Assembly (NCBI GenBank): GCA_947631865.1
Contig: CANRNF010000003.1
Coordinates: 16,595 to 80,594 of the forward strand
Direction of reading: 5' to 3'
Source of the DNA: an uncultured Oscillospiraceae bacterium
Lineage (GTDB): Bacteria > Bacillota > Clostridia > Oscillospirales > Oscillospiraceae
DNA length: 64,000 nt
Shown here: positions 6,850 through 44,751 of the stretch, one piece after another
Numbering within the stretch: position 1 is the stretch's first letter
Layout of the letters: every line of letters starts with the position of its first letter
The notes under the pieces: model-generated
Databases searched by the model: none
Told to the model about the DNA's origin: nothing
What the model saw: only the letters and a program-made list of their open reading frames with translations
Position numbers and translations under genes: made by a program

Positions 6850-6975
6850 TAACTTGGAGAGATGTTTTGAAGAGAACGGTGTGTATGTGCGGCCGGTTCA
6901 TTGATCCTTTATGGCCCTAATGGAGCGCAGGTGGTATTCATTAGGACATAAGGCCCGCTGTGAGGAGGTATGTCT

Positions 6976-7707
6976 ATGCGGATCGCGGTCTGCGACGATG
7001 ACCTGCGGGAGATGGAACAATTTGAGGACGCCCTGCAGGGATGGGACCCGACCAGGAAAGCGGAGAAGTTTATGGACGGCGCTTCGCTGCTGGAGGCGGC
7101 CAAAGACGTACCCGGCTTCGATATCGTGTTTTTGGACATCTACATGCCAGGAGAAAACGGCGTTGACATCGCGAAGCGGCTGCGGGAGATATCGCCTGAG
7201 ACGGGTATCGCCTTCGTCACCACCAGCACGGAGCACGCGGTGGAGGCGTTTTCCCTGCACGCGCTGCATTATCTTGTCAAGCCGGTGACGACCAGGGGCG
7301 TGGTGGAGGCCTTCCGGCGGCTGACGGAGATCCGGAAAAGTCAGCGGGAGCGGATATCGTTCGCTGTCGGCACGAACCGGATCACGGTGTTTCTGGATCA
7401 AATCTGCCTGCTTGAAAACGACAACCATGTGGTGAACGTCTCCCTGTCCGACGGACGGCGGCTGAAGGTATGGATGAGCTTTGGCGAGCTGGAGCGAAAG
7501 CTGAGCGGGAGCTTTTTGCGTATCAACCGGGGGATCATCGTCAATATGGACTATATCGCCCAAATGGGGGCTGACACCTGTACCCTGCGGGACGGGAGCC
7601 GGCTGCCCATCGCCGTACGGCAGAGCGCTGCCATCCGCGCGGCCTATGACGACTATGTGTTCGACCAGCTCTCCCGGCGAAAGAGCTTTTCGGAGGTACA
7701 GCCATGA
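6976..7707 (+). CDS. LytTR-family (AgrA/ComE-like) response regulator
   Basis: The receiver domain shows CDDD, FLDIYMPGENG and LVKP. A C-terminal LytTR DNA-binding domain follows. ATG 6976 lies 7 nt after GAGGAGG; an alternative ATG is at 6970. Confidence 0.88.
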   Translation: MRIAVCDDDLREMEQFEDALQGWDPTRKAEKFMDGASLLEAAKDVPGFDIVFLDIYMPGENGVDIAKRLREISPETGIAFVTTSTEHAVEAFSLHALHYLVKPVTTRGVVEAFRRLTEIRKSQRERISFAVGTNRITVFLDQICLLENDNHVVNVSLSDGRRLKVWMSFGELERKLSGSFLRINRGIIVNMDYIAQMGADTCTLRDGSRLPIAVRQSAAIRAAYDDYVFDQLSRRKSFSEVQP

Positions 7708-9089
7708 GCGTGGGCGTGTATCTGCGTAACGCGGCAGGCTTCTTTCTCGAGATATTCCCCTGCGTGATGTTGGTCTTCCTGCCCTTTTCGGAGGAGTCGT
7801 TCCGCTTTCACAGAAAGCGCGTCCTTCTCGGGGAGGCGGCCGCGGTAACGGTGCTGTCGGCTCTGTTCCCGGCGGCGATGTACGCCGCGGCGCAGCGGGA
7901 CATGGCGGTGGCCGCCAATATCTTCATGGGCGCCGTCATATTGCTCACGCTCATCGCGCAGGGCTGGCTGATACGGGAGGCCCCGATCAAGAAGACCATG
8001 GCCGTGTTCGCGGTGGTATTTTACGGCGTGACACAGTACTGGCTGGTGAACATGCTGATCGGCGCCGTGTCCGGGCTGGTCCCGCTGTCTCAGGAACTGG
8101 AGAACTGGTCGGTATATTCCCCCTGCGGGCTGGCGATGTACGCGGTCACGACGGTGATCCTGCTGCCGCTGATGCTCCTTCTGGTGATCCAGCCGCTGAG
8201 CGAGTATCTCCAGGAGATAGAGACAAAAAAGATGCGCCAGGAGTTCTTTATCCTGGCGGCGACCACGGTGGTATTCCTTCTGCTGGTCATGGCGGCTGAC
8301 ATCAGCTACTATCGTGTGGGGTACCGGGCGTATCACCGGGAACTGCCCCAGCTTCTGGTGGCGCTGATGGACCAGCTGGCCATCTATTGGCTGATCTTCC
8401 GGGAGTCCGTGTGGCGCAAACGGGACAGCGACCACCAGCGGGCTCTGGAGATACAGCAGCTCCAATATGAAAAGATCGTCAGCGATATGGAGAACACCCG
8501 GCGGATGAGCCATGACCTGCGCCACCACTACAGCTCTCTGAACGAGATGCTTCAGGACGGCAGGCTGGATGAGATGAAGCGCTATCTCTCCCAGGTGCTG
8601 GACGACAACGCCAAGCGGATGAACGAGGTCTACTGTGAGGACATGGCGGTCAACGGGCTTTTGCAGTACTACGCGGGCGTCGCCCGGGCGGAGGGGATAC
8701 GCTGCGACATCCAGGCCCAGTGCGACAACGTGACCATCGCCCCCACGGATCTGACGGTGGTGTTCGGCAACGCCATGGAAAACGCCGTCAACGCCTGCCG
8801 GAAGTGCGGCCAGGACCGGTGGATCCTCGTGCGCGTCGGCACGGTGCAGGGTTCGCTGGCCATCGAGATATCCAACGCCTGCAGCGGCGTGTGCATCAGC
8901 CGCCGGGAGCAGACCGAGGATGGCTTCCTGCCCGCGGAGGCGTTTTTGAGTGAGCGGGCCAACGGCGGGTACGGCCTGCGCAGTATCGCCCAGACCGCCC
9001 AGAAATACGGCGGCAGCGCCAGGTTCCGGTATGACGCCGGGGAGGATACGTTCACATCCCGTATCCGGTTGAATATGCCCACGGAATGA
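7704..9089 (+). CDS. AgrC/ComD-like (HPK10-type) membrane sensor histidine kinase
   Basis: 461 aa with about 6 N-terminal TM segments. It has an H-box SHDLRHH, an N-box FGNAMENAVNA and a G-box GGYGLRSI. An ATGA overlap couples it to the regulator gene. Confidence 0.85.
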   Translation: MSVGVYLRNAAGFFLEIFPCVMLVFLPFSEESFRFHRKRVLLGEAAAVTVLSALFPAAMYAAAQRDMAVAANIFMGAVILLTLIAQGWLIREAPIKKTMAVFAVVFYGVTQYWLVNMLIGAVSGLVPLSQELENWSVYSPCGLAMYAVTTVILLPLMLLLVIQPLSEYLQEIETKKMRQEFFILAATTVVFLLLVMAADISYYRVGYRAYHRELPQLLVALMDQLAIYWLIFRESVWRKRDSDHQRALEIQQLQYEKIVSDMENTRRMSHDLRHHYSSLNEMLQDGRLDEMKRYLSQVLDDNAKRMNEVYCEDMAVNGLLQYYAGVARAEGIRCDIQAQCDNVTIAPTDLTVVFGNAMENAVNACRKCGQDRWILVRVGTVQGSLAIEISNACSGVCISRREQTEDGFLPAEAFLSERANGGYGLRSIAQTAQKYGGSARFRYDAGEDTFTSRIRLNMPTE

Positions 9090-9422: not shown

Positions 9423-9629
9423 ATGATGAACGTAAACACCATGGACACCCGGCTCAGGGCGCTTTTTGACCGCCAGAGGAAGGTCAGCGATCCGCGCATG
9501 GCGCGGCTCATCGGGGAGACAGAGACCCGGTGGGGCGCGCCCATCGCGGACGACGACCTGGGATCGGTGGCGGCGGCGGGCGACCCGGACGCAGGCCAGA
9601 GAAAAACACCCTGGGATGAGCGCAGATGA
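9423..9629 (+). CDS. Hypothetical 68-aa protein translationally coupled to the sigma factor gene
   Basis: SD GGGAGGA lies upstream. Its stop overlaps the sigma start (ATGA). No family was recognised. Confidence 0.5.
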   Translation: MMNVNTMDTRLRALFDRQRKVSDPRMARLIGETETRWGAPIADDDLGSVAAAGDPDAGQRKTPWDERR

Positions 9630-10099
9630 TGGACGGGGAAGAGCTGTACCTGCGGTACAGGGATAAGGTCCTGGCCTATATCCGCGCCAGGGTGGAAAAC
9701 GAACAGGACGCGGAGGACCTTTGCTCCACCGTCTTTATGAAGGCGTGGGCAAACCTGCCGGATTATGACGGGCAGAGGTCCTCTGTCTCCACATGGCTTT
9801 TTTCCATCGCCCACAACGCGATCATCGACTTTTACCGCGGCCGGCGGCCGGCGGCCGAATTGGACGAGACGGTGCCGGCCCCGGAGCGGGACCCGGAACT
9901 GGAGGCCCTGGCGGAGGCGCTGGAGGCCCTGCCGGAGCGGGAGCGGGACGTGATCGTGCTGTACTACTACCACGGACTGACCCTGAAGGAGATCGCGGTC
10001 CACATGCGCCTTGCCTACAGCACGGTGAAGCTCTGCCACAGCCGGACGCTGGAGGCGCTCAGACAGATGATGGGCGGAACAGAGGCCCTGAAGATATGA
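9626..10099 (+). CDS. Sigma-70 family, ECF-like RNA polymerase sigma factor
   Basis: 157 aa containing only region 2 (DAEDLCSTVFMKAW, STWLFSIAHNAIIDFYR) and region 4 (LPERERDVIVLYYYHGLTLKEIA). Confidence 0.85.
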   Translation: MMDGEELYLRYRDKVLAYIRARVENEQDAEDLCSTVFMKAWANLPDYDGQRSSVSTWLFSIAHNAIIDFYRGRRPAAELDETVPAPERDPELEALAEALEALPERERDVIVLYYYHGLTLKEIAVHMRLAYSTVKLCHSRTLEALRQMMGGTEALKI

Positions 10100-10132
10100 C
10101 CGGAAACGACAGTTTTTGAAGGAGATACGACC

Positions 10133-10429
10133 ATGGAGCAGAAAGTGATCGAGGAATTCCTGGAAAAGGCGAAGCAGGCAAAGAGCCCGGAGGAGATCAA
10201 GGCCGCCGCGAGGGCGTGCGGTCTGGAGCTGACGGCGGAGAAGCTCACGAAGCTGGACGGCGCGCTTTGTGGAGCGAAGGGCGAGCTGTCCGACGAGGAC
10301 CTGGACGGCGTCGCCGGCGGGAAGCAGAACCTGGAGTATGGCACCCCTGAGTTTTGGCACTATGTAGACGAACAGATCCAAAAATACGGACCGAGTGTCG
10401 TCCCCGCTTTGATGGCGACCTATATGTAA
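10133..10429 (+). CDS. N1: Nif11-like-leader GG precursor, Cys-free core
   Basis: MEQKVIEEFLEKAKQAKSPEEIKAAARACGLELTAEKL...ELSDEDLDGVAGG|KQNLEYG... matches the Nif11 leader architecture. Confidence 0.8.
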   Translation: MEQKVIEEFLEKAKQAKSPEEIKAAARACGLELTAEKLTKLDGALCGAKGELSDEDLDGVAGGKQNLEYGTPEFWHYVDEQIQKYGPSVVPALMATYM

Positions 10430-10482
10430 TAAACGCAGAAGACGCTAGCGGGGGACATACATAGTAAAGGGGAGGCACTATC

Positions 10483-10716
10483 GTGGACGACAACGAGAAC
10501 AAAAAGAGCGGTGAAGAGCTGGCCGACGAGGCCCTGGACAAGGTGGCCGGCGGCGGGTTAATGCGTAAGCCATGCTGCTTTATATGCGGTCGGGACGACA
10601 TTCCCCTGGGAGAGGGTTCCTACCGTGCGGCGGATTATGGAAGATCCATTTCCTATATCTGCGAGGCTTGCTTAAAATCCAACTACGGCCCGGAATGGAC
10701 ATGGCGCAAACTTTGA
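10483..10716 (+). CDS. A2: short-GG-leader precursor, zinc-ribbon-like core (class i)
   Basis: GTG start after AAAGGGGAGG. Leader (M)DDNENKKSGEELADEALDKVAGG; core has CFIC...YICEAC. Confidence 0.8.
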   Translation: MDDNENKKSGEELADEALDKVAGGGLMRKPCCFICGRDDIPLGEGSYRAADYGRSISYICEACLKSNYGPEWTWRKL

Positions 10717-10749
10717 TGGCCGGGTGACCCGGCAGAGAGGAGAATTATC

Positions 10750-11055
10750 ATGGAGCAGAAGAAGATCGAGGAATTCGTGGAAAAAGCGAAGCAGGCCAAG
10801 AGCCCGGAGGAAGTGGAGGCCGCAGCGAAGGCGTGCGGGGTGGAGCTGACGGCGGAGAAGCTCGCGAAGCTGGAGAAATCCCTCCGCGGAAAGAAGGGCG
10901 AGCTGTCCGACGAGGAGCTGGCCGGCGTTTCCGGCGGGGCGGTGGATCCGAGCACGACCGATTGGCTCGCTGAGCAGCTCGTTGAGCAGTTCAAAGAGCA
11001 GATCAAAGACCTCGACCCGGAATTCTTGGAATTGCTGAAGCTGGCTTTGTCCTGA
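10750..11055 (+). CDS. N2: Nif11-like-leader GG precursor, Cys-free amphipathic core
   Basis: Its leader is nearly identical to N1. ...ELSDEELAGVSGG|AVDPSTTDWLAEQLVEQFKEQI... Confidence 0.8.
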   Translation: MEQKKIEEFVEKAKQAKSPEEVEAAAKACGVELTAEKLAKLEKSLRGKKGELSDEELAGVSGGAVDPSTTDWLAEQLVEQFKEQIKDLDPEFLELLKLALS

Positions 11056-11078
11056 AAGACGGGAACAGGAGAAACGAC

Positions 11079-11345
11079 ATGGACAACAGCGAGAACAAAA
11101 AGAGCTACGAGGAACTGGCCGACGAGGCATTGGACAAGGTGGCCGGCGGTGGCTGGGAATGGCTATGGGGAGACTCATCGCCCAGAGTGACCCCATGCGG
11201 CATTTGCCGCGGAACTGAGGAGCAAGCTATATTATATACGATCGATTTCGGCAACGGCGGCAGCTCCGGGATGTACTTGTGTTCCAAGTGCCTCGCGGAC
11301 GAAAGGAAAAAATATAAAGTGACCGAAGGCTGGGGCGGGAAATGA
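11079..11345 (+). CDS. A3: short-GG-leader precursor, zinc-ribbon-like core (class i)
   Basis: Leader MDNSENKKSYEELADEALDKVAGG; core has PCGIC...YLCSKC. Confidence 0.82.
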   Translation: MDNSENKKSYEELADEALDKVAGGGWEWLWGDSSPRVTPCGICRGTEEQAILYTIDFGNGGSSGMYLCSKCLADERKKYKVTEGWGGK

Positions 11346-11399
11346 CGTGCGCGGAATTGTCCGAAGGCTGCCATTGCTGACGAAAGGAAAGGAAGAGCT

Positions 11400-11618
11400 A
11401 TGAATCAAGACGAAAATAAAAAAAGCGTTGAAGAACTGGCGGACGAGGCCTTGGACGCGATAACGGGCGGGAAGAGGGATGAATACGTACGCCCCACGGT
11501 CACCTGTCCCAAGTGCCATCAGCAAAAAGAGAGGCTGGTGACATGCCGTGACCCGAAGGATCCGACAAAGCGTGAGTCCATGTGCCCCGACTGTGCCCGC
11601 GATCTCGGGTATGTGTGA
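11400..11618 (+). CDS. A4: short-GG-leader precursor, zinc-ribbon-like core (class i)
   Basis: Leader MNQDENKKSVEELADEALDAITGG; core has CPKC...MCPDC. Confidence 0.8.
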   Translation: MNQDENKKSVEELADEALDAITGGKRDEYVRPTVTCPKCHQQKERLVTCRDPKDPTKRESMCPDCARDLGYV

Positions 11619-11650
11619 TGACCGTCCCGGACGGAGAAAGGAGAGACATC

Positions 11651-11863
11651 ATGGAAAACAGCGAGAACAAAAAGACCCCGGAAGAGCTGGCCGACGAGGC
11701 GTTGGACAAGGTGGCCGGGGGGGAGTACGGTGGGGATTTTGTTGTACTCAACTGCAGATCCTGCCGCCACCATAACAATGACTGTCCCTACGGAACTCCG
11801 CTGGGTGCCGTGTTAGAATTGAAACCATCGTATTGGACACTGTGCCCAAGCAAGGAGGCTTGA
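11651..11863 (+). CDS. A5: short-GG-leader precursor, class ii Cys core
   Basis: Leader MENSENKKTPEELADEALDKVAGG; core has NCRSC...DCPY...LCP. The internal ATG is preferred over the track start 11582 because of the SD and the leader alignment. Confidence 0.78.
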   Translation: MENSENKKTPEELADEALDKVAGGEYGGDFVVLNCRSCRHHNNDCPYGTPLGAVLELKPSYWTLCPSKEA

Positions 11864-11866
11864 CCG

Positions 11867-12112
11867 ATGAACGACAGCGAGAACAAAAAGAGCGGTGAGG
11901 CCTTGGCCGACGAGGCGCTGGAAAATGTGTCCGGGGGGAGCGACGATGTTTTTTTTACAATTATAAGTTTTAGGAACAATTTTAAAAGCAGAAACAATTG
12001 CACGTCCTGCAACAGCTATTACAGGAGCAACTGTCTGCTAAAGCTTACTGTTGAAGGACTCTACGATAAGTTTAGCGGGGACAATAACGCGATGTGCCCT
12101 TACAAGACGTAA
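11867..12112 (+). CDS. A6: short-GG-leader precursor, class ii Cys core
   Basis: Leader MNDSENKKSGEALADEALENVSGG; core has NNCTSC...NC...AMCPYKT. The core DNA is locally AT-rich. Confidence 0.78.
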   Translation: MNDSENKKSGEALADEALENVSGGSDDVFFTIISFRNNFKSRNNCTSCNSYYRSNCLLKLTVEGLYDKFSGDNNAMCPYKT

Positions 12113-12138
12113 GACAGGGCCGAAAGGAGAAAACGGAC

Positions 12139-12378
12139 ATGAGCGACAGCGAGAACAAAAAGACCCCGGAGGCCCTGGCCGACGAGGCGCTGGACGCGGT
12201 GGCCGGCGGGAGCAGCAGATTTGACGCGCTCCTTAAGGGGGGAGCCTGCGCGGACTGCCCACGGATCGACGAGAGCGTTCATATGTATGATGTGATATTC
12301 GACGGCAGCAGCATGTCCATCTATCTCTGTCCCGATTGCGTTGCCAAACGCCGCCAAAGAGGACAAGTGGTTCGGTAA
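12139..12378 (+). CDS. A7: short-GG-leader precursor, zinc-ribbon-like core (class i)
   Basis: Leader MSDSENKKTPEALADEALDAVAGG; core has CADC...YLCPDC. The start at ATG 12139 is chosen by SD and leader alignment. Confidence 0.8.
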   Translation: MSDSENKKTPEALADEALDAVAGGSSRFDALLKGGACADCPRIDESVHMYDVIFDGSSMSIYLCPDCVAKRRQRGQVVR

Positions 12379-12406
12379 GCGCGCAGACAGCGGAAAGGAG
12401 AGCGAC

Positions 12407-12682
12407 ATGAACGATAGCGAGAATAAAAAGACCCCGGAGGAGCTGGCCGACGAGGCGCTGGAGAAGGTGTCCGGAGGCGGGCTCTCCTGGGGCGGCCTTG
12501 TACTACCGGACCCGCTGGAGGACATTTTCGCTGAGAAGTGCCATAAGTGCGGGAAAAAGCCCGGTCGGCAGTATACCCTGTACTATCCGACGCCGTTCGG
12601 CCCCAGGATCGAGACCTGCTGCGACGACTGCGCCGAACTGTTCAGACAAACGTATGGAGGCGAAGCGATCCCCGTCGACTGA
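12407..12682 (+). CDS. A8: short-GG-leader precursor, zinc-ribbon-like core (class i)
   Basis: Leader MNDSENKKTPEELADEALEKVSGG; core has CHKC...CCDDC. Confidence 0.8.
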   Translation: MNDSENKKTPEELADEALEKVSGGGLSWGGLVLPDPLEDIFAEKCHKCGKKPGRQYTLYYPTPFGPRIETCCDDCAELFRQTYGGEAIPVD

Positions 12683-12709
12683 CGGCAGACAGCGGAAAGG
12701 AGAACGACT

Positions 12710-12961
12710 ATGAATGATAACGAGAACAACAAGAGCATGGAGGCTCTGCCCGACGAGGCCCTGGACAAGGTGACCGGCGGTGATGGATTGACATATCTGC
12801 CTTTCAAGATCCCATGCCACAGGTGCCCCAGATGTGACGAGACCGTGATGTATTATACGATCAAAGACGAAAGCGGTGGGTACGGGATGAACCTGTGTCC
12901 CGACTGCGTCGCGGAACTCAGGAAAGATCATACGGTGTACGAAGGCTTTCATCTATTCTGA
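12710..12961 (+). CDS. A9: short-GG-leader precursor, zinc-ribbon-like core (class i)
   Basis: Leader MNDNENNKSMEALPDEALDKVTGG; core has CHRCPRC...NLCPDC. Confidence 0.82.
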   Translation: MNDNENNKSMEALPDEALDKVTGGDGLTYLPFKIPCHRCPRCDETVMYYTIKDESGGYGMNLCPDCVAELRKDHTVYEGFHLF

Positions 12962-12981
12962 CGCCGGGAAAGAGGACGACA

Positions 12982-13172
12982 GTGAATAACGAACGCAAAC
13001 GTGTACCCCCCGAAGCGCTGGACGACGATGCCATGGACAGGGTCGCCGGGGGAGGATCACTCTCAGACGGACAGGGGTTCTACCACTGTAAAAACTGCGG
13101 TGCGCAGTTCACAAAAACCAGATCGTGTATGGCCGCCGTCTCAGCTGCCCCAGCTGCGGGGCATGGCTGTGA
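12982..13172 (+). pseudogene. A10: frameshifted GG-leader precursor (class i); single-A deficit in A5 run at 13113-13117
   Basis: GTG start, (V)NNERKRVPPEALDDDAMDRVAGG...FYHCKNCGAQFTK. With one more A the frame reads NQIVYGRRLSCPSCGAWL-stop at 13172, parallel to A11. As written the frame runs on into A11. Confidence 0.65.
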
Positions 13173-13202
13173 TATAAATGATTATATAAGGGGAGAACGA
13201 AC

Positions 13203-13391
13203 ATGGATAACAACGAGGACAAAAAGAGCGGTGAAGAGCTGGTGGACGAGGCGCTGGACAGGGTCGCCGGCGGGAGAATATACCAAGACAGACACGGGAT
13301 CCTCTACTGCGATAGCTGCGGTGCGTCTTTCCTGGCAGAACACCTCCAGACTATGCGCCGTCTCCACTGCCCCTACTGCGGGGCGGAATAA
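13203..13391 (+). CDS. A11: short-GG-leader precursor, zinc-ribbon-like core (class i)
   Basis: Leader MDNNEDKKSGEELVDEALDRVAGG; core has YCDSC...HCPYC. Confidence 0.8.
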   Translation: MDNNEDKKSGEELVDEALDRVAGGRIYQDRHGILYCDSCGASFLAEHLQTMRRLHCPYCGAE

Positions 13392-13424
13392 CATTCACAA
13401 ACTGCTGTGGTAAGGAGATATGAC

Positions 13425-14201
13425 ATGAAGCGGAGCGCGGGATACTTTATGGCGCTGGCCCTGACGGCGGCGCTCATCCTGGGCGCGGCCACGCCGGCGC
13501 TGGCGGCGGAGAATTTTTCCGACGAGATGAAATTCGACGACGGGGCCGATATCAGCCCCGCTGACGGCGCGGACAGCGTGGAGCGGGCGGGGGACCACGA
13601 GGACAGCCCCTACTTCCGCCACCCGGATTTTTATAACATGACCTCCACCGACAGTCTGACCATCCTGACGAACTTCAAGACCATACAGCAGTCCAGCGAG
13701 TGGAGCTGCGGCGTGGCCTGCGTGCTGATGACGCTGGAGTGGTACGGCCTGCGGGGGGACTACGACGAGGAGAGCCTGGCTCAGCTGCGGCCCCAGGGGA
13801 TGGAGCCCGTGGCTACCACCATGAGCCAGATGGTGGGCCTTTTTGATTCAGTAGGCGGCTTTGATTGCTACTCCGCCATCGACGCGGGGGAGGACGCGGC
13901 GGATATCTTCACTTTTGATTACATCCAGGAGACCCTGGCGAACGGCGACCCCATCATCATCGGCTGGAACGACTGGGGCGCCCACTGGCAGATCATCATC
14001 GGCTACGACGACATGGGCACCGAGGTGACCCAGGACGACGTGATCATCGTGGCCGACCCCTATGACACCACCGACCATGACCAGGACGGCTACGGCATCT
14101 ATCCCGCCGAGCGGTTCCTGTATAACTTTACATTCTACGATTACTTTGACGAGGGCGAGCTGAACGACATGTGCTTCCTCGTCGCCAGACCCGCGGCCTG
14201 A
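13425..14201 (+). CDS. Secreted papain-fold, C39-like cysteine peptidase
   Basis: Signal peptide MKRSAGYFMALALTAALILGAATPALA. The order Q..SSEWSCGVACVLM ... GAHWQIIIGYDD ... ADPYD matches the Gln/Cys/His/Asp layout of C39-type peptidases. SD AAGGAG lies 7 nt upstream of ATG 13425. Confidence 0.6.
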   Translation: MKRSAGYFMALALTAALILGAATPALAAENFSDEMKFDDGADISPADGADSVERAGDHEDSPYFRHPDFYNMTSTDSLTILTNFKTIQQSSEWSCGVACVLMTLEWYGLRGDYDEESLAQLRPQGMEPVATTMSQMVGLFDSVGGFDCYSAIDAGEDAADIFTFDYIQETLANGDPIIIGWNDWGAHWQIIIGYDDMGTEVTQDDVIIVADPYDTTDHDQDGYGIYPAERFLYNFTFYDYFDEGELNDMCFLVARPAA

Positions 14202-17248: not shown

Positions 17249-17413
17249 ATGAACGATAAAGAGAACAAAAAGACCCCGGAGGAACTGACCGACGAGGCGG
17301 TGGACACCGTCGCGGGCGGCGCGCTCGGCCTCGTCACCCCGCAGACACTGACCCAGGAGGAGATCGACGCCCTGCTGGCGGGGCAGAAAGAGGACAGCCA
17401 GAAGAAGCGGTAA
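17249..17413 (+). CDS. A12: short-GG-leader precursor, Cys-free 30-aa core
   Basis: MNDKENKKTPEELTDEAVDTVAGG|ALGLVTPQTLTQEEIDALLAGQKEDSQKKR. It lies immediately upstream of the giant Sel1 gene. Confidence 0.72.
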   Translation: MNDKENKKTPEELTDEAVDTVAGGALGLVTPQTLTQEEIDALLAGQKEDSQKKR

Positions 17414-17462
17414 ACACATATCCCGCCCCATGCCGGGCGGACAGCGAAAGGGAGGTACATTT

Positions 17463-22859: not shown

Positions 22860-23120
22860 ATGAATAGCAGCAAAAACGAAAAGAATTTTGAAGAGCTGTC
22901 CGACGAAGCCCTTGACAAGGTGGCCGGAGGCTGGGACGAGGACGAGGTATTGGAGGCTGGGCCATGGGTAGCGAAGGCTCCCCTGACCGATGATGAAAGA
23001 TACGGCGATCACGAGTGCGGCAACTGCCACAGAAGGCATATCAACGCCTCGAACGGCATGTTGAGAGACGACAACGTATGGTTTTGCAACGGCTGCTGGT
23101 ACACGATCAGCGGTTGGTAA
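22860..23120 (+). CDS. A13: short-GG-leader precursor, zinc-ribbon-like core (class i)
   Basis: Leader MNSSKNEKNFEELSDEALDKVAGG; core has ECGNC...FCNGC. Confidence 0.8.
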   Translation: MNSSKNEKNFEELSDEALDKVAGGWDEDEVLEAGPWVAKAPLTDDERYGDHECGNCHRRHINASNGMLRDDNVWFCNGCWYTISGW

Positions 23121-23138
23121 AGATGAAGGGAGGCAGAG

Positions 23139-23405
23139 ATGATAGACAACAAGGACAAAAGGGAGCTGTCCGACGAGGCCATGGATGAGGTGGTGGGCGG
23201 TTCGATCCGACTCCCCACTTCTGTGACGGCCGCTTATTTGAGCGATCCGTCTCAACCGCATACCGTGTGCGACAGATGCCACGGTACATTTGCCGCGGGC
23301 GTGGTCACAGAGCACGCGGTGAGCTCCGGCTATCTTTGGCTCTGCCCGGCTTGCGTCCAGGCTTACAAGGACGCCGGTCTGTACTTTCACAAAGCCGATA
23401 TATAA
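23139..23405 (+). CDS. A14: short-GG-leader precursor, zinc-ribbon-like core (class i)
   Basis: Leader MIDNKDKRELSDEAMDEVVGG; core has VCDRC...LCPAC. Confidence 0.78.
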   Translation: MIDNKDKRELSDEAMDEVVGGSIRLPTSVTAAYLSDPSQPHTVCDRCHGTFAAGVVTEHAVSSGYLWLCPACVQAYKDAGLYFHKADI

Positions 23406-23433
23406 GAAGGAGCAGCGGTAAAAGGAGAAGGCT

Positions 23434-23700
23434 ATGAACGACAACGAGAACAGGAAGAGCATGGAAGAGCTGGCCGACGAGGCGCTGGACGCCGTGTCCG
23501 GGGGAGCGGTATCAAAAGAGACTCTAGATGAGGAGAAATGGTATTGCTTTTTTCAGGGATTTCAGTCGCTGAATAATTGCTGCAATTGTCAGTCAGACTG
23601 GGATTTCACCTGTCAGCTCTTCGATATGGATCCAGAGGCGAGATACAATATGTTCGGCGGGAACCAGTTCGCGAAGTGCCCGTATTTCAGGAGCATGTAA
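23434..23700 (+). CDS. A15: short-GG-leader precursor, class ii Cys core
   Basis: Leader MNDNENRKSMEELADEALDAVSGG; core has NNCCNC...TC...AKCPYFRSM. Confidence 0.8.
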   Translation: MNDNENRKSMEELADEALDAVSGGAVSKETLDEEKWYCFFQGFQSLNNCCNCQSDWDFTCQLFDMDPEARYNMFGGNQFAKCPYFRSM

Positions 23701-25120: not shown

Positions 25121-25363
25121 ATGAACAACAACGAAAACAGAAAGGCTCCCCAGGAGCTGACAGACGAGATGCTGGACGCGGTGGCCGGAGGCGGGCGCCA
25201 GGCCGATAGCTCTGACGCGTATTTTTGGCAGCAGTTTCGGAACAACAACGACTGCCTGCATTGCAAGAACAGCTGCCCGTATATTTTCATGTCGCCCGAG
25301 GAGAGGAGCATTACCTTTGGCAGAGACCCCAACGCGAAGTGCCAGTATTACAAGAGCATGTGA
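25121..25363 (+). CDS. A16: short-GG-leader precursor, class ii Cys core
   Basis: Leader MNNNENRKAPQELTDEMLDAVAGG; core has NDCLHC..SCPY...AKCQYYKSM. Confidence 0.8.
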   Translation: MNNNENRKAPQELTDEMLDAVAGGGRQADSSDAYFWQQFRNNNDCLHCKNSCPYIFMSPEERSITFGRDPNAKCQYYKSM

Positions 25364-25383
25364 GACCGAAGGGAGAGCAAACT

Positions 25384-25629
25384 ATGGAAAACAGCGAGAA
25401 CAAAAAAGCTCCGGAAGAGCTGACGGACGAGATGCTGGACAAGATCGTCGGCGGAGCCGATACACCAGATAAGGATGCCATTCTGGCGTGGGCCATGCAG
25501 TTTGGTATGAACAACTGCTTGCGATGCAAGGGCATGACGACCAGCCAGTGCAGTTACTATCATGGGCCGGTGGACGTCTACCTGATGGGGTTGAAGGCCT
25601 CCGACACCTGCCCCGGATTCATATCCTGA
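25384..25629 (+). CDS. A17: short-GG-leader precursor, class ii Cys core
   Basis: Leader MENSENKKAPEELTDEMLDKIVGG; core has NNCLRC...QC...DTCPGFIS. The internal ATG 25384 is chosen by leader alignment. Confidence 0.78.
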   Translation: MENSENKKAPEELTDEMLDKIVGGADTPDKDAILAWAMQFGMNNCLRCKGMTTSQCSYYHGPVDVYLMGLKASDTCPGFIS

Positions 25630-25645
25630 TGAAGGAGGCGCCGTC

Positions 25646-25915
25646 ATGAGCGACAACGAGAACAGGAAGAACAGCGAAGAACTGGCGGACGAGGCGCTGG
25701 ACAATGTCGCGGGAGGCATCACGCCCGAGCAATGGGAGCAGGCGCGGCAGCAGGCGCTTGCGCAGTATAAGGATCCATGCATCGTGTGCAAGACGACGGA
25801 AGGCGTGAAGTACTACGCCTACAGGAACAAGGTGGGATGCTACGGCGCTCAGTATTTCTGCCCGGCCTGCCGTGATCTGAAGATCCAGCAGGGATATGAG
25901 GTGTGGGAATACTGA
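25646..25915 (+). CDS. A18: short-GG-leader precursor, zinc-ribbon-like core (class i)
   Basis: Leader MSDNENRKNSEELADEALDNVAGG; core has PCIVC...FCPAC. Confidence 0.8.
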   Translation: MSDNENRKNSEELADEALDNVAGGITPEQWEQARQQALAQYKDPCIVCKTTEGVKYYAYRNKVGCYGAQYFCPACRDLKIQQGYEVWEY

Positions 25916-25936
25916 CGGCCGTGCCCGCCAAAGAAA

Positions 25937-25958
25937 GCTGGACAATGTCGCCGGGGGA
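25937..25958 (+). pseudogene. Orphan fragment of a leader 3' end (..LDNVAGG)
   Basis: gctggacaatgtcgccggggga duplicates the A18 leader segment ctggacaatgtcgcgggaggc. It has no start codon or SD. Confidence 0.4.
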
Positions 25959-25993
25959 ATGATGGATATTAGTGATCTTAAGGAGGAACATCC

Positions 25994-26233
25994 ATGAACG
26001 AGGAACTGATCGGGAAGCTGAAGGAGGCCAAGTCCGTGGAGGACGTGGTCGCCGTTGCCAAGCAGTACGGCAAGAAGTTGACCCTGGAGCAGGCCAAGGT
26101 CCTTCTGGACCGGGTGAAGGCCGCTGTGACCGGCGAGTTGTCCGACGAGGACCTGGCCGCCGTCGCCGGCGGCGCCGTCGACCCGAAGAAGTTCGGGGAG
26201 GCCATGGGCGCTGACAAGCATTGGCTGGGCTGA
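25994..26233 (+). CDS. N3: Nif11-like-leader GG precursor, 19-aa Cys-free core
   Basis: MNEELIGKLKEAKSVEDVVAVAKQYGKKLTLEQAKVLL...ELSDEDLAAVAGG|AVDPKKFGEAMGADKHWLG. Confidence 0.75.
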   Translation: MNEELIGKLKEAKSVEDVVAVAKQYGKKLTLEQAKVLLDRVKAAVTGELSDEDLAAVAGGAVDPKKFGEAMGADKHWLG

Positions 26234-34600: not shown

Positions 34601-34610
34601 CAGACGCGAT

Positions 34611-38293: not shown

Positions 38294-38306
38294 AAGGGGA
38301 GACACC

Positions 38307-39527: not shown

Positions 39528-40004
39528 ATGGACAACGGACTGTTTCGTCAAAAGAGCCTGGACAAGGTGTCCAGCCCAGAGCAGATGAACGACTATATCC
39601 GGGTGACCAGTCCCGGGGTGTGGCTGATCCTGGCCGCGGTGATCGCGATCCTGGCCGGACTGCTCATCTGGTCCGTGCTGGGCCGGCTGGAGACCACGGT
39701 GCCGGCGGCGGCGGTGGCCGGGCCGGACGGAGCGGCGGTGTGCTACATCGATGAGGGAGACCTCTCCTCCGTGCACGCGGGCCAGACGGTGCATATCGCA
39801 GGGATCGATTATGCTCTGTCCGAGGTGGCGGCCAAGCCTGTGGTCGTAGACGAGAGTTTCGACGCCTACGCCCTGCACGTGGGCGGCCTGGAGGCCGGCC
39901 AGTGGGTGTACCCTGCGGAGCTGGACGGGACGCTGGACGAGGGGATCTACGAGGCGAAGGTCGTGGTGGACAGCGTTTCTCCCATCTCGTTCCTGCTGAA
40001 TTGA
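39528..40004 (+). CDS. Short HlyD-like/NHLM-type bacteriocin secretion accessory protein
   Basis: The N-terminus FRQKSLDKVSSPEQMNDYIRVTSPGVWLIL plus a single TM resembles the start of NHLM-system HlyD homologues. It is only 158 aa. Confidence 0.55.
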   Translation: MDNGLFRQKSLDKVSSPEQMNDYIRVTSPGVWLILAAVIAILAGLLIWSVLGRLETTVPAAAVAGPDGAAVCYIDEGDLSSVHAGQTVHIAGIDYALSEVAAKPVVVDESFDAYALHVGGLEAGQWVYPAELDGTLDEGIYEAKVVVDSVSPISFLLN

Positions 40005-40011: not shown

Positions 40012-42186
40012 ATGAAGAAGCAAGAGATCAAAAAGCCCGTTACCAAGGGCGTGGCCAAAGTGCCGGTGGTCATGCAGATGGAGGCGCTGGAGTGCGGCGC
40101 CGCCAGCCTGACCATGGTGCTGGCCTATTATGAGAAATGGATACCGCTGGAGCAGGTGCGCGCCGACTGCGGCGTGAGCCGGGACGGCTCCAACGCCAAA
40201 AACGTGCTGAAGGCCGCGAGGAGCTACGGCCTCACGGCGAAGGCATACCGCTTTGAGCCGGATGACCTGCGGGAGCGGGGAACGTTCCCCTGCATCATCC
40301 ACTGGAACTTCAACCACTTCGTGGTGCTGGACGGGTTCAAGGGCGGCAAAGCCATATTGAACGACCCGGCCCGGGGCGTGACCCCGGTGAGCATGGAGAC
40401 CTTTGACGAGTCCTTCACCGGCATCTGCATGATGTTCGAGCCGGGGGAGGGGTTCCAGCCCGGCGGCAGCCCCAAGAGCATGCTGGGCTACGCGAAAAAG
40501 CGGCTCACCGGCGCCGGGGCGGCGCTGGTGTTCGTGACGCTGACCACGCTCATCAGCTCCCTTTTCGGCGTGATCAGCCCCGCCTTCTCCCGGATATTTA
40601 TGGACCGTCTGCTCACGAGGCAGAACCCGGAGTGGCTGTGGCCGTTTTTGGCGGCCCTGGCCGGCGTGAGCATTTTGCAGCTCGTCGTGGCATGGGTCCA
40701 GGCGGTTTGGTCCCTTCGCATCACAGGCAAGCTGGCTTCCGTGGGTTCGGCAACGTTCCTGTGGAAGGTGCTGCACATGCCCATGGAGTTTTTCTCCCAG
40801 CGCATGGCCGGCGACATCCAGCAGCGGCAGACCACCAACGCCAACATCGCCCAGGAACTGGTGAATACCATAGGGCCGCTGGTGCTGAACGCCATCATGA
40901 TGGTGTTCTACCTGGTGGTCATGCTCCGGTATTCCTGGATATTGACCCTGGTAGGACTGGCCTCCGTGGTCATCAACCTGGGCGTGAGCCGCCTTATATC
41001 CAAAAAGCGTGTGAACATCATGCGCGTGCAGATGCGCGACGCGGGCAAGCTCGCCTCCTCCACCATGGCGGCCATCGAAATGATCGAGACCATCAAGGCC
41101 GCCGGCGCGGAGAACGGCTACTTCGAGCGCTGGGCGGGCTACCAGGCCAGCGTGAACACCCAGCAGATGCGCTTTACCAAGACAGACGCGTATCTCGGCC
41201 TTATCCCCTCCATCGTCAGCGTCATCAGCGACATGGCCATCCTGTTCCTGGGCGTGCTGTTCGTCATGCAGGGCAGCTTCACCATCGGTATGGTCATGGC
41301 CTTCCAGGGCTTCCTCATGAGCTTCACCGCCCCGGCCACTACCCTCATCGGCGCGGGCCAGACCATCCAGGAGATGCGTACGGAGATGGAGCGCGTGGAG
41401 GACGTGATGGAGTACCCCGAGGACAGCAATATGGTCGAGGGGGAGGAGCAGGAAAGCTACGACAAGCTCTCCGGCGCTCTGGAGATGAAGCACGTCACCT
41501 TCGGCTACTCCAAGCTGGCGGAACCCCTCATCGAGGACTTCAATCTGAGCCTGAAGCCGGGCAGCCGGGTGGCCTTCGTGGGAGGCTCCGGCTGCGGCAA
41601 GAGCACCCTTTCCAAGCTCATATCGGGCCTTTACCAGCCCTGGAGCGGGGAGATCCTCTTCGACGGCAAGCCCATCCGGGAGATCGACCGGAGCGTGTTC
41701 ACCGGCTCACTCGCGGTGGTGGATCAGGACGTCATCCTCTTTGAGGACACCATTGCTGAAAATATCAAGATGTGGGATAAGTCCATCGAGGACTTCGAGA
41801 TGATCATGGCGGCCCGGGACGCTGGTATCCACAGCGACATCGTCCAGCGTGAGGGCGGCTACAACCACAAGCTGACAGAGGGCGGCCGTGACTTCTCCGG
41901 CGGCCAGCGCCAGCGCATGGAGATCGCCCGTGTCCTGGCCCAGGACCCCACCATCATCATCCTGGACGAGGCCACCTCCGCCCTGGACGCCAAGACGGAG
42001 TACGAAGTGGTCAAGTCCATCAAGGACCGGGGCGTCACCTGTATCGTGGTGGCCCACCGGCTCTCCACCATCCGGGACTGCGACGAGATCATCGTCCTGG
42101 ACCAGGGCAAAGTGGTGGAGCGGGGGACCCACGACGAGCTATACGCCAAGGGCGGATATTACACCCGCCTGGTGTCCAATGACTGA
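40012..42186 (+). CDS. Peptidase-containing ABC transporter (PCAT): C39 peptidase + permease + ATPase
   Basis: The C39 domain shows QMEALECGAASL, NHFVVL and NDP. It has 6 TM segments, Walker A GGSGCGKST, signature FSGGQRQR and Walker B IILDEATSALD. Confidence 0.9.
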   Translation: MKKQEIKKPVTKGVAKVPVVMQMEALECGAASLTMVLAYYEKWIPLEQVRADCGVSRDGSNAKNVLKAARSYGLTAKAYRFEPDDLRERGTFPCIIHWNFNHFVVLDGFKGGKAILNDPARGVTPVSMETFDESFTGICMMFEPGEGFQPGGSPKSMLGYAKKRLTGAGAALVFVTLTTLISSLFGVISPAFSRIFMDRLLTRQNPEWLWPFLAALAGVSILQLVVAWVQAVWSLRITGKLASVGSATFLWKVLHMPMEFFSQRMAGDIQQRQTTNANIAQELVNTIGPLVLNAIMMVFYLVVMLRYSWILTLVGLASVVINLGVSRLISKKRVNIMRVQMRDAGKLASSTMAAIEMIETIKAAGAENGYFERWAGYQASVNTQQMRFTKTDAYLGLIPSIVSVISDMAILFLGVLFVMQGSFTIGMVMAFQGFLMSFTAPATTLIGAGQTIQEMRTEMERVEDVMEYPEDSNMVEGEEQESYDKLSGALEMKHVTFGYSKLAEPLIEDFNLSLKPGSRVAFVGGSGCGKSTLSKLISGLYQPWSGEILFDGKPIREIDRSVFTGSLAVVDQDVILFEDTIAENIKMWDKSIEDFEMIMAARDAGIHSDIVQREGGYNHKLTEGGRDFSGGQRQRMEIARVLAQDPTIIILDEATSALDAKTEYEVVKSIKDRGVTCIVVAHRLSTIRDCDEIIVLDQGKVVERGTHDELYAKGGYYTRLVSND

Positions 42187-42200: not shown

Positions 42201-44399
42201 ATGGGATGGTTTGACGAACAAATAAGAGAACGCCGGCGCCAGGACCAGCAGGCATTCGAGGAGAGTTTCGCCTCCATCGCGGGGGCCGTGCTGGGCCGCC
42301 GGGTCATGCCCGGCGACGACAGCCAGCAGGCCAGAAGCGCCATGGAGGAGATCCTGCGCTACTACCACGCCAAACCCCGGGAGATGCCCGACACGGTGAA
42401 GGACTTCAACGAACAGCTGGAGTTCATGCTGCGGCCCTACGGCATCATGCGCCGGACGGTGACGCTGGAGAAGGGGTGGTACAAGGACGCCATCGGGGCC
42501 ATGCTGACCCGCCGGAAGGAGGACGGCGCCCTCACGGCCATGATCCCCACGGGCCTCACCGGCTACACCTACGCCGACCCGGCCACAGGCAAGCGGCAGC
42601 GGGTGAATGCCCGGACAGAGGAGCTTTTTGAAAGAGAGGCCATCGCCTTCTATAAGCCATTCCCCCAGGGGAAGATCGGCATCCCCGGCCTCATGCGGTA
42701 TATAGCCGCCTGCACCTCTTGGGCGGACCGGATCTTCTTCGCCCTGTCCGCGCTGGCGGTGTCTCTGGTGGGACTGCTGCTGCCCCGGCTCAATAACCTC
42801 CTGTTCTCCCGGGTCACGGACAGCGGGAGCGTGGTGGTTCTGGCGGCGCTCATCTCCTTCATGCTGCTGGTGACCGTGAGTTCCAGGATCCTGGAGGTAG
42901 TGAAGCAGCTGCTCACCACACGGATGAACACAAAGGTCTCCGTGTCGGTGGAGGCCGCGGGTATGATGCGGCTTTTCTCCCTGCCTGCCAACTTCTTTAA
43001 ACAGTACAGCACCGGCGAGATCGCCACCCGCTGCATGAATATCAAGCAGCTGGCCTCCTTGCTGGTGTCCTCGGTGGCCGCGGTGGGGCTGACCAGCCTG
43101 TTCTCCCTGCTGCAGATCACCCAGATCTTTGCTTATGCACCGGCGCTGGTGGTGCCGGCGCTGGCCATCGTGGCCGTGACGATGGTGTTCTCGGTGCTCA
43201 CGTCCATCCGCCAGAAGGGCATCACCCAGCAGATGATGGAGCAGAGCGCCAAGGAGACCGGCCTTACCTACGCCCTCGTCAGCGGCGTGCAGAAGGTGAA
43301 GCTCTCCGGCGCGGAGAAGCGGGCCTTCGCCAAGTGGAGCGAGCAGTACGCCAAGGTGGCGCGGCTGCAATATGACCCGCCCATGTTCTTGAAGGTGAAC
43401 AGCGTCATCAGTACGGCCATCACCCTCGTCGGCACACTGGTGATGTACGCTGTGGCGGTGGAGAGCGGCGTGTCCGTTTCGGAATACTACGCCTTCAACT
43501 CCTCCTACGCCATGATCAGCGGCGCTTTTATGTCCCTGGCCGGCATCGCCTCCATGGTGGGCCAGATCATCCCCATCCTCAATATGGCCAAGCCCATACT
43601 GGACACGGAGCCGGAGATCAGCTCCGACAAGCAGGTGGTGGAGCGCATCAGCGGCGGCATCGAACTCAATAACGTCTCCTTCCGCTACTCGGAGGATATG
43701 CCCAACGTGGTGGACGACATGAGCCTCAAGATCCGGCCGGGCCAGTACGTGGCCATCGTGGGCCGGACCGGCTGCGGCAAGAGCACGCTCATGCGGCTGC
43801 TGCTTGGTTTCGAGACGCCCCAGAAGGGCGCCATCTACTACGACGGCCGGGACATGGCCGGTCTGGACCTGAAGAGCCTGCGCCGGCGCATGGGTGTGGT
43901 GATGCAGGACGGGAAGCTCTTCCAGGGCGATATCTACTCCAACATCACTATCTCCGCGCCCTGGCTCACCATGGACGACGCCTGGGAGGCGGCGGAAATG
44001 GCGGGCATCGCCGAGGACATCCGGCGCATGCCCATGGGGATGCACACCCTGATCTCCGAGGGAAGCGGCGGCATCTCCGGCGGCCAGCGCCAGCGGCTGC
44101 TCATCGCCCGGGCCATCGCTCCCAAGCCCCGCATCCTCATGTTCGACGAGGCCACCTCGGCCCTGGACAATATCACCCAGCGGGTGGTGTCCGAGTCTTT
44201 GGATCAGCTGAAATGCACCCGTATCGTCATAGCCCACCGGCTCAGCACCATCCGCCACTGCGACCGGATCATCGTCCTGGAGGGCGGCCATATCGTGGAG
44301 GACGGCACATACGAGGAGCTCATCGCCAAACACGGCTTCTTCGCCGAGCTGGTGTCCCGGCAGCGCTTGGACACGGATACATCCTCGGACGGCAAATAA
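42201..44399 (+). CDS. Second bacteriocin-export ABC permease/ATPase lacking the peptidase domain (NHLP/NHLM-type partner)
   Basis: 732 aa with a non-peptidase N-terminal domain, a TMD, GRTGCGKST, ISGGQRQR and LMFDEATSALD. Confidence 0.85.
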   Translation: MGWFDEQIRERRRQDQQAFEESFASIAGAVLGRRVMPGDDSQQARSAMEEILRYYHAKPREMPDTVKDFNEQLEFMLRPYGIMRRTVTLEKGWYKDAIGAMLTRRKEDGALTAMIPTGLTGYTYADPATGKRQRVNARTEELFEREAIAFYKPFPQGKIGIPGLMRYIAACTSWADRIFFALSALAVSLVGLLLPRLNNLLFSRVTDSGSVVVLAALISFMLLVTVSSRILEVVKQLLTTRMNTKVSVSVEAAGMMRLFSLPANFFKQYSTGEIATRCMNIKQLASLLVSSVAAVGLTSLFSLLQITQIFAYAPALVVPALAIVAVTMVFSVLTSIRQKGITQQMMEQSAKETGLTYALVSGVQKVKLSGAEKRAFAKWSEQYAKVARLQYDPPMFLKVNSVISTAITLVGTLVMYAVAVESGVSVSEYYAFNSSYAMISGAFMSLAGIASMVGQIIPILNMAKPILDTEPEISSDKQVVERISGGIELNNVSFRYSEDMPNVVDDMSLKIRPGQYVAIVGRTGCGKSTLMRLLLGFETPQKGAIYYDGRDMAGLDLKSLRRRMGVVMQDGKLFQGDIYSNITISAPWLTMDDAWEAAEMAGIAEDIRRMPMGMHTLISEGSGGISGGQRQRLLIARAIAPKPRILMFDEATSALDNITQRVVSESLDQLKCTRIVIAHRLSTIRHCDRIIVLEGGHIVEDGTYEELIAKHGFFAELVSRQRLDTDTSSDGK

Positions 44400-44477: not shown

Positions 44478-44708
44478 ATGAACGACAGCGGAAACAAAAG
44501 GATCGATGAAGAGCTGGCCGAGGAGACGCTGGACGCAGTGACGGGTGGTATCGGCATCAGCGTCACGCCGGAGGACGGCGTCGTGGGCATCGACTGTAAC
44601 TGCGGAACGATCATAAGTGTGCCGAAGGGCGCCACCAGCGTGCAATGCCCCGGGTGCGGCAGGAAATGGCGCATCAACGGCAAAGTGGTGACCCCGGCTA
44701 TCCTCTGA
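44478..44708 (+). CDS. A19: short-GG-leader precursor, class iii core (CxCG...CPxC)
   Basis: Leader MNDSGNKRIDEELAEETLDAVTGG; core has DCNCGT...QCPGCGRKW. Confidence 0.8.
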   Translation: MNDSGNKRIDEELAEETLDAVTGGIGISVTPEDGVVGIDCNCGTIISVPKGATSVQCPGCGRKWRINGKVVTPAIL

Positions 44709-44751
44709 CGGCTCTTGCCGGCGGATGACAGGCCCTGAAAGGAGAACAGCC

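Follow-up and report, generated by a model that had tools for sequence, protein, structure and literature searches.

A 64,000-nucleotide stretch of genomic DNA from an uncultured Oscillospiraceae bacterium (GenBank assembly GCA_947631865.1, contig CANRNF010000003.1, positions 16,595 to 80,594 of the forward strand; the window in the following, with coordinates counted from its first nucleotide) contains tandem arrays of small genes whose products begin with a double-glycine (GG) leader peptide. Here we describe five of these precursors, A5, A6, A15, A16 and A17, whose cores form a class of their own (class 2) beside the zinc-ribbon-like cores (class 1) encoded in the same arrays. A preliminary description of the locus had named five such open reading frames (ORFs) with their coordinates. 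All five are present on the forward strand as follows, and the peptide strings quoted for them are exact.

11651..11863, forward strand: class-2 precursor A5, ORF read from the sequence, with a core of 46 amino acids (aa) at 11723-11860, EYGGDFVVLNCRSCRHHNNDCPYGTPLGAVLELKPSYWTLCPSKEA
11651-11722, forward strand: leader of A5, MENSENKKTPEELADEALDKVAGG
11867..12112, forward strand: class-2 precursor A6, 24-aa GG leader followed by a 57-aa core at 11939-12109
23434..23700, forward strand: class-2 precursor A15, GG leader followed by a 64-aa core
25121..25363, forward strand: class-2 precursor A16, GG leader followed by a 56-aa core
25384..25629, forward strand: class-2 precursor A17, GG leader followed by a 57-aa core

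The precursors comprise 70-88 aa in total, of which the cores account for 46-64 residues. A5 and A6 share the interval 11651-12112 on the forward strand, with a gap of 3 nucleotides between the A5 stop codon and the A6 start. All five carry the same type of 24-residue leader, M(E/N)(N/D)SENKKxxE(E/A)LADEAL(D/E)xV(A/S)GG, and its ending ...EELADEALDKVAGG is visible in each of them. About 20 further precursors of the window share this leader. A leader hidden Markov model (HMM) detects about 24 precursors in the window with either this leader or a Nif11-like one, located in four arrays and at one isolated position. The leader is conserved over these roughly 24 unrelated cores and its conservation stops exactly at the GG motif. 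TIGR01847 scores the A17 leader with 14.5 bits, just under the cut-off of 15.7, and precursors neighbouring the class-2 genes give weak matches to ComC and Bacteriocin_IIc. The NHLP leader model TIGR03793 yields 12-14 bits for the class-2 leaders of 24 aa, against a cut-off of 50.9. TIGR03798 is reached only by other precursors of the arrays and not by class 2; the precursor at 10750-11055, which has a Nif11-like leader, lies above its cut-off.

When the five cores are aligned, a Phe, a C-x2-C pair and two further single Cys residues are invariant. The family motif consists of a hydrophobic or aromatic helix and the sequence F-x3-4-N-C-x2-C-x3-10-C-(P-Y-G)...G-x3-5-C-P. An alignment of 51 diverse class-2 cores shows the four Cys without exception, together with the Asn directly before Cys1 and the Phe that precedes Cys1 by four to five residues, each in more than 90% of the cores. 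Unique cores gave the following values.

Cys1-Cys2 spacing: x2 (90 unique cores)
Cys2-Cys3 spacing: x3-10, mostly 6-7 (90 unique cores)
Cys3-Cys4 spacing: x16-26 (90 unique cores)
Asn before Cys1: 76/84 cores
Pro after Cys4: 71/86 cores
Pro-Tyr-Gly after Cys3: commonest tripeptide, 35 cores

Extra Cys residues occur in 26 of the 90 unique cores and the number of Cys is odd in 23 of them. The cores are hydrophilic with a median net charge of -1. The motif that had first been read from the window thus survives a proper alignment, with the four Cys invariant in all 51 cores, but some of its details do not extend to every member. The aromatic helix does not apply to A5, which has only a short hydrophobic helix, nor does the C-terminal motif (K/M/T)-C-(P/Q)-(Y/G), since A5 reads L-C-P-S at this position. 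Four Cys in a 3+1 arrangement are common to all five cores, but A15 has two additional Cys besides these and hence six in all. The A17 core represents the subtype AW..QF..NNC.RC...C.YY.GP...TCPG, and A6, A15, A16 and their relatives form a weaker subgroup that ends in ...MFGGxxNAxCP.

For an independent test of membership, an HMM was built only from the cores of foreign members with a different leader, and all 833 stop-to-stop ORFs in the six frames of the window were scored. The top five ORFs are exactly A5 (E-value 1.7e-10), A17 (5.9e-8), A6 (7.6e-8), A16 (2e-3) and A15 (4.6e-3). The sixth-ranked ORF reaches only 0.14, and none of the zinc-ribbon-type cores of the window matches. In a profile-profile comparison with hhalign, the weaker A6/A15/A16 subgroup aligns to the foreign group with the other leader at a probability of 98.4% (E-value 8.8e-15) with the four Cys in register. 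The corresponding comparison of class 2 with the zinc-ribbon-like class 1 gives 0.17%, hence no relation. We conclude that the five ORFs belong to one real, conserved family, and that the distinct subfamily recognised in the preliminary description is confirmed. Array members in two other contigs (L023, 4582-5095; L026, 1410-1817) with the pattern W.EY...HCG.C...C.YG...C resemble class 2 distantly; the class-2 HMM gives no match to them.

The family is also recovered outside the locus. Searching with a profile of the five full precursors brought up metagenome proteins that share the core, and a profile of the cores alone retrieved 41 representatives at E<=1e-3, eight of them at E<=1e-10, out of 1.84 billion representative proteins. 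Every one of the 41 is 63-95 aa long. Many relatives carry a second GG leader, M(N/S/T)(D/E)EK(K/R)LD(D/E)xxLExVSGG. Since the class-2 core is found behind this different leader as well, it is a module separable from the leader. All genome matches are metagenome-assembled genomes (MAGs) of uncultured Oscillospiraceae whose samples bear the label Lapin, the French word for rabbit. Lapin-001 bin25 has a near-identical orthologue of each of the five window genes, and contig L010 encodes an A16 orthologue of 94% identity. Between the window and the closest MAG the substitutions are too few for an estimate of selection. The remaining occurrences are metagenome contigs from ENA and Logan, most of them short. 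The distribution of the family is narrow.

In other contigs class-2 genes make up the bulk of tandem arrays. In L005 and L007-L009 six to eight class-2 genes directly follow the gene for a 2804-aa protein without known domain, the array of L006 has 14 genes, six of them class 2, and that of L023 has 17 genes and is headed by nine of class 2. Zinc-ribbon-like cores are mixed into foreign class-2 arrays, too. Giant proteins without known domain adjoin the arrays of other genomes (2804 aa in L005/L007; 956, 967 and >1647 aa in L001).

AlphaFold2 predicts a confident helix-loop-helix fold for the A5 core (44-sequence alignment, pLDDT 92.2, pTM 0.70, the predicted confidence scores per residue and for the whole chain, respectively). 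A first helix (residues 2-11) ends at Asn-Cys1; next come a loop with Cys2 and Cys3-Pro-Tyr-Gly and a second helix (residues 26-33), and Cys4-Pro lies in the C-terminal tail. Structure prediction had been proposed as a check on the class; it supports a defined fold for A5, although three of the five models are not confident. Foldseek found no analogue of either model in the PDB, and for the better model none in BFVD; this speaks neither for nor against a metal site. No Pfam or NCBIfam family matches the window members, the foreign members or the 51 cores apart from weak leader matches, and a search of PDB sequences with the class-2 profile returned only noise. Below threshold, the Pfam scan of the 51 cores gave DUF5651 in four, LdpA_Fe-S-bd in two (best E-value 2.2e-4), Fer4_21 in one (0.065) and single matches to various zinc fingers. 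The source core of the LdpA_Fe-S-bd near-match was not among ten candidates that were scanned again. The literature that we searched contains no account of such cargo. With no relative in Pfam, NCBIfam or the PDB and no description in the literature searched, the cargo family is new. It represents an undescribed conserved domain of about 50 residues whose genes have multiplied into large tandem arrays in uncultured Oscillospiraceae of the gut.

The class-2 genes share their arrays with other GG-leader precursors.

10100..13391, forward strand: array 1, about 12 GG-leader precursors, comprising A5, A6, zinc-ribbon-like cores and two with Nif11-like leaders
22860..23700, forward strand: array 2, three precursors, A15 being the last
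25121..26233, forward strand: array 3, A16, A17, one zinc-ribbon-like precursor and one weak Nif11-like precursor
44478-45242: array 4, no class-2 member

Class 2 is therefore spread over three of the four arrays, so that the classes are indeed intermixed as described before. Since foreign arrays also mix zinc-ribbon-like and class-2 cores, this intermixing is a conserved property. The class-1 cores have CPxCG knuckles and some of them lie above the cut-offs for zf-LSD1 and Zn_ribbon_FGT1_2. The core of one class-1 precursor (22860-23120, forward strand) contains HECGNCH and matches Paired_CXXCH_1 with 21.0 bits at a cut-off of 20.6, probably by chance. Long Nif11-like leaders with a terminal GG are found on three precursors (10100-10429, 10750-11055 and 25982-26233, all on the forward strand), whose cores are helical and Cys-free. 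An ORF at 12895-13413 (forward strand) combines a leader-like ...DDDAMDRVAGG with a CxxC core and reads on over the following precursor gene in a different frame for about 130 codons. A precursor that has decayed or suffered a frameshift is a possible explanation.

Outside the arrays the window encodes an export cassette, a two-component system and several large proteins; the four genes listed from 13407-14201 to 23783-25045 lie between the arrays.

6970-7707, forward strand: LytTR response regulator (Pfam)
7704-9089, forward strand: GHKL histidine kinase (Pfam)
13407-14201, forward strand: secreted C39-like/C70-like peptidase with signal peptide, between arrays
14259-17222, forward strand: 987-aa surface protein with signal peptide, acidic PE/T repeats and G-rich beta-helix-like repeats
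17430-22781, forward strand: 1783-aa protein with 34 Sel1 repeats
23783-25045, forward strand: 420-aa Sel1 protein
39528..40004, forward strand: 158-aa membrane protein, matched by TIGR03794 at positions 1-47 only (E-value 3e-11, below cut-off)
40012..42186, forward strand: peptidase-bearing ATP-binding cassette (ABC) exporter with C39 peptidase, permease and ATPase (Peptidase_C39 1.8e-32, ABC_membrane, ABC_tran)
42201..44399, forward strand: partner ABC permease/ATPase without peptidase domain (TIGR03797, 731 bits at a cut-off of 709)

The exporter reaches 951 bits with TIGR03796 (cut-off 853). Its peptidase domain contains ECGAASL and NHFVVL, which we take to be the C39 segments with the catalytic Cys and His. 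The 158-aa protein is a reduced HlyD-like component that has kept the N-terminal segment and one transmembrane helix, and a homologue of the same length precedes the exporter in L006 (18203-18679). The cassette is thus partly atypical, with TIGR03796 and TIGR03797 above their cut-offs and TIGR03794 matching only in part. The complete set TIGR03794/TIGR03796/TIGR03797 was defined as the exporter for NHLP/Nif11 precursors whose cleavage sites are Gly-Gly (PMC2887384). Both the export machinery and the leader are of a known kind, namely the double-glycine type of peptidase-containing ABC transporters (PCATs) and the NHLP/Nif11 export type.

It is likely that the LytTR regulator and the GHKL kinase (6970..9089) regulate the arrays. 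This gene pair also lies beside arrays in L001, L006 and L023. In L006 the kinase, the LytTR regulator, STAS, SpoIIE-HATPase_c_2, the 158-aa protein and the C39-ABC exporter all adjoin the array, as they do in part in L023. A single GG-leader precursor (17249-17413, forward strand) lies isolated between the gene of the 987-aa surface protein and the giant Sel1 gene. Its core, ALGLVTPQTLTQEEIDALLAGQKEDSQKKR, has 30 residues and lacks Cys, and close relatives recur in many contigs (P0027, P0036, P0044, P0049, P0055, P0064). The product may be a pheromone for the LytTR/kinase pair. A partner-switching-like set occupies 32852-39488 (forward strand), directly upstream of the exporter, and comprises MatE fused to HATPase_c_2, an adenylating enzyme of the GH3 family, SpoIIE-HATPase_c_2 and STAS fused to APH. 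A similar pair, STAS with SpoIIE-HATPase_c_2, stands ahead of the exporter in L006. A 157-aa ORF (9626-10099, forward strand) immediately upstream of array 1 resembles, by its sequence alone, a sigma-70/ECF-type (extracytoplasmic function) sigma factor. The C-terminus of the 987-aa surface protein has an SPATG motif followed by a hydrophobic and basic tail, which reads as a putative sortase-type anchor.

Genes for tailoring enzymes were looked for in the window and in its foreign counterparts. No LanM, cyclodehydratase/YcaO, SPASM radical SAM protein or glycosyltransferase was found with Pfam and NCBIfam in the long window ORFs scanned, nor did any of these classes occur within 10 kb in four foreign contexts (L001, L005/L007, L006 and L023). 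Genes for thioredoxin, Dsb or VKOR/thiol-disulfide oxidoreductases were likewise absent from the window ORFs scanned and from the four foreign contexts. The sole Radical_SAM gene seen encodes 254 aa and lies in L001, 5 kb off on the opposite strand beside a MarR gene. One window protein of 432 aa (45305-46603, forward strand), without relative in Pfam, NCBIfam or the PDB, contains the HxxxDG-like motif FHALTDGAG and was considered as a tailoring enzyme. This candidate was rejected, as the protein has no known domain, a distant homologue lies beside a STAS gene without peptide genes, and another has neither STAS nor peptide genes as neighbours; in view of these homologues the protein is assigned to signalling rather than to peptide modification. 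The protein belongs to a large family of about 420 aa, the one named match coming from a Clostridia MAG, and a 91% identical copy is encoded in L023 (8453-9751) beside an array with the other leader type.

On this basis we favour, with moderate confidence, that the class-2 products are unmodified exported miniproteins braced by their four Cys, most likely around a metal ion. A precursor of 70-88 aa would be translated with its 24-residue GG leader. The C39 domain of the NHLP/Nif11-type exporter (40012-42186, with its partner 42201-44399) would recognise the leader, cut after Gly-Gly and export the core; we infer cleavage and export from the gene set together with what is established for this class of transporters. 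The released core of 46-64 residues would receive no further enzymatic tailoring and would fold into the predicted helix-loop-helix, in which the hydrophobic or aromatic helix leads to Asn-Cys1, the loop holds Cys2 and Cys3, and the C-terminal tail holds Cys4. The four Cys would then brace the fold, most likely as a tetrathiolate site for Zn2+ or Fe2+ with the metal acquired after export in the anoxic gut, or alternatively as two disulfides. The scaffold (F, N, four C, P-Y-G, G, P) is fixed and the rest varies among the tandem paralogues, which suggests a diversified secreted ligand. Such a ligand may act in interbacterial competition or signalling and would be expressed under the adjacent LytTR two-component system.

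Several points weigh against this interpretation. Family membership, leader, gene context and the predicted fold rest on the results above, whereas cleavage, export, the unmodified state of the core, the kind of Cys brace with its metal content, the activity and the biological role are predictions. Only two of the five AlphaFold models are confident (pLDDT 92, 89.5, 70, 68 and 68), and the A16 core, predicted with a shallow alignment of 21 sequences, reached a pLDDT of 69.5. No zinc-finger or Fe-S model matches the class-2 cores at threshold. Moreover, the data are at the level of contigs, and a maturase encoded elsewhere in the genome is possible.

Two disulfides are the main alternative to a metal in the brace, and the tetrathiolate is weakly favoured. 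Cys are odd in number in about a quarter of the cores (23/90), the class-1 cores of the same arrays resemble zinc ribbons, no oxidoreductase gene was found with the arrays, and the hosts are Oscillospiraceae of the gut, presumed anaerobes in reducing surroundings. A simple Cys4 metal site is a plausible candidate.

The same observations bear on a different proposal, which we regard as rather unlikely though deserving of serious attention, that class 2 comprises disulfide-braced secreted bacteriocins, in which two disulfides formed after export staple the two helices, a bracing found in glycocins and further Cys-stabilised class II peptides, and the product kills related bacteria. GG leader, C39-ABC exporter and LytTR/kinase pair correspond to the classic layout of a class II bacteriocin locus, the predicted fold is a helix-loop-helix, and the paralogues within the arrays are diversified. 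In its 24-residue acidic GG leader, its C39-ABC exporter, its LytTR/kinase pair and its tandem paralogous precursors, the locus indeed resembles those of known GG-leader cargo of peptidase-ABC transporters (class II bacteriocins, pheromones, PCAT1/CtA-type). However, the class-2 leader stays just under the TIGR01847 cut-off, and the arrays are larger, with about 24 precursors over four arrays here and up to 17 genes elsewhere. The class-2 cores are hydrophilic and slightly acidic, have 46-64 residues and contain four invariant Cys, whereas class II bacteriocins are cationic or hydrophobic and membrane-active. A pore-forming mechanism of the class II type is unlikely because of this hydrophilicity and the median charge of -1; a receptor-directed or metal-related role fits better. 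In addition, the odd Cys number of 23/90 cores, the lack of thiol-disulfide oxidoreductase genes in the contexts examined, the presumably anaerobic hosts and the resemblance of the co-arrayed cores to zinc ribbons rather than to disulfide peptides all disagree with a disulfide brace. Neither a small hydrophobic immunity-like ORF nor an Abi/CPBP gene was recognised in the arrays, and the bacteriocin assignment is weakened since no immunity gene was identified.

Glycocins such as sublancin and glycocin F are the closest match in architecture, as they have a GG leader, C39-ABC export and a helix-loop-helix held by four Cys. They contain two C-x6-C pairs with nested disulfides, an S- or O-linked sugar attached by a SunS-type glycosyltransferase, and dedicated thiol-disulfide oxidoreductases. 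Class 2 differs in the spacing C-x2-C-x3-10-C-x16-26-C and in having no glycosyltransferase or thioredoxin-fold gene in the contexts scanned. Class 2 thus works most like unmodified class II GG-leader peptides and is built most like glycocins, but it lacks the defining features of the latter, just as it lacks those of NHLP/Nif11 and radical-SAM peptides, zinc ribbons and Fe-S proteins.

It is improbable that the class-2 products are precursors of peptides synthesised by ribosomes and modified after translation (RiPPs) whose Cys are converted to a thioether, sactionine/ranthionine, lanthionine or heterocycle by an enzyme with its gene at another place in the genome, as is the case for many Nif11/NHLP precursors. 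The cassette is of the NHLP/Nif11 exporter type, whose modifying genes can be distant (PMC2887384), Nif11-like leaders occur in the same arrays, and the core is Cys-rich. NHLP/Nif11 systems including the prochlorosins likewise combine this export cassette with hypervariable cores on one leader (Haft et al. 2010, PMC2887384). In contrast to them, the class-2 leader has 24 aa instead of about 70-83 and stays below the cut-offs of the NHLP and Nif11 models, the HlyD-like part has only 158 aa, and the search of the scanned window ORFs and the four foreign contexts revealed no LanM, cyclodehydratase, YcaO or SPASM radical SAM protein. Furthermore, the hydrophobic scaffold of the class-2 cores is fixed and their fold is predicted with confidence, that is, they are conserved folded domains, unlike the short low-complexity peptides typical of RiPP cores. 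A radical-SAM RiPP of the SCIFF/ranthipeptide or sactipeptide type in particular would be at variance with the observation that no SPASM maturase adjoins the arrays and that no NCBIfam RiPP precursor or core model was matched.

The preliminary description had noted a loose likeness of the 3+1 Cys arrangement with its following Pro to Fe-S or metal-binding motifs. A ferredoxin- or HiPIP-like (high-potential iron-sulfur protein) miniprotein with a [4Fe-4S] or [2Fe-2S] cluster ligated by the four Cys is, however, highly improbable. The small size, the four invariant Cys and the Cys-Pro motifs, with Pro after Cys4 in 71/86 cores and Pro-Tyr-Gly after Cys3 in 35, are indeed reminiscent of single-cluster ferredoxins and HiPIP, and the LdpA_Fe-S-bd and Fer4_21 matches mentioned above point the same way below threshold. 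Ferredoxins have the canonical spacing C-x2-C-x2-C...C-P and HiPIP has C-x2-C-x16-C-x13-C, and C-x2-C-x3-10-C-x16-26-C corresponds to neither. No Fe-S model reached threshold and no structure matched. Since Fe-S clusters are assembled in the cytoplasm, and since GG leader and C39-ABC imply a PCAT route that handles unfolded cargo and takes it away from this assembly, a true cluster is unlikely; the likeness to Fe-S or metal-binding motifs remains a resemblance.

An intracellular role as small regulators or zinc-finger-like factors, with the GG-type N-terminus unused for export, is the least probable of all, for although four-Cys metal sites are typical of intracellular domains and a sigma factor-like gene as well as a partner-switching module (STAS, SpoIIE, HATPase_c_2) are part of the locus, the leader is conserved on about 24 unrelated window cores and ends exactly at GG, the class-2 core is also found behind another type of GG leader, and the arrays always lie beside a C39-ABC cassette or in genomes that have one.

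Returning to exported four-Cys miniproteins, a comparison with class 1 is instructive. Both classes have the same leader, the same arrays, a common length range and four conserved Cys; probably they use the same export route and perhaps the same logic of cross-bracing. The folds differ, however. Class-1 cores have two CxxC knuckles, often CPxCG, with beta-hairpin character, whereas class 2 has one CxxC and two single Cys in a predicted helical fold and is therefore not a zinc ribbon. A far-reaching and decidedly tentative extension would be that both classes are secreted Cys4 metalloproteins of two folds, with an exporter devoted to dozens of small domains in which, in an anoxic habitat, the metal serves as an extracellular cross-link replacing disulfides. 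In that case class 2 would be a new metal-binding mini-fold. Possible roles would be metal sequestration or competition or, with iron as the metal, redox chemistry outside the cell.

If a metal is held by the four Cys, the class-2 products would be unusual metal-stabilised miniproteins exported via a peptidase-ABC transporter and would offer a new small scaffold for protein design. If they act as bacteriocins or signals, they would add a new family to the repertoire of competition and communication in a poorly known gut clade. The class-2 peptides are short enough for chemical synthesis, which makes direct testing feasible.

About 11 kb downstream of the last array, the window also contains a gene for a metal-chaperone GTPase of the CobW/HypB/UreG family (56169-56837, forward strand), which adjoins a large Fe-S flavoprotein gene.

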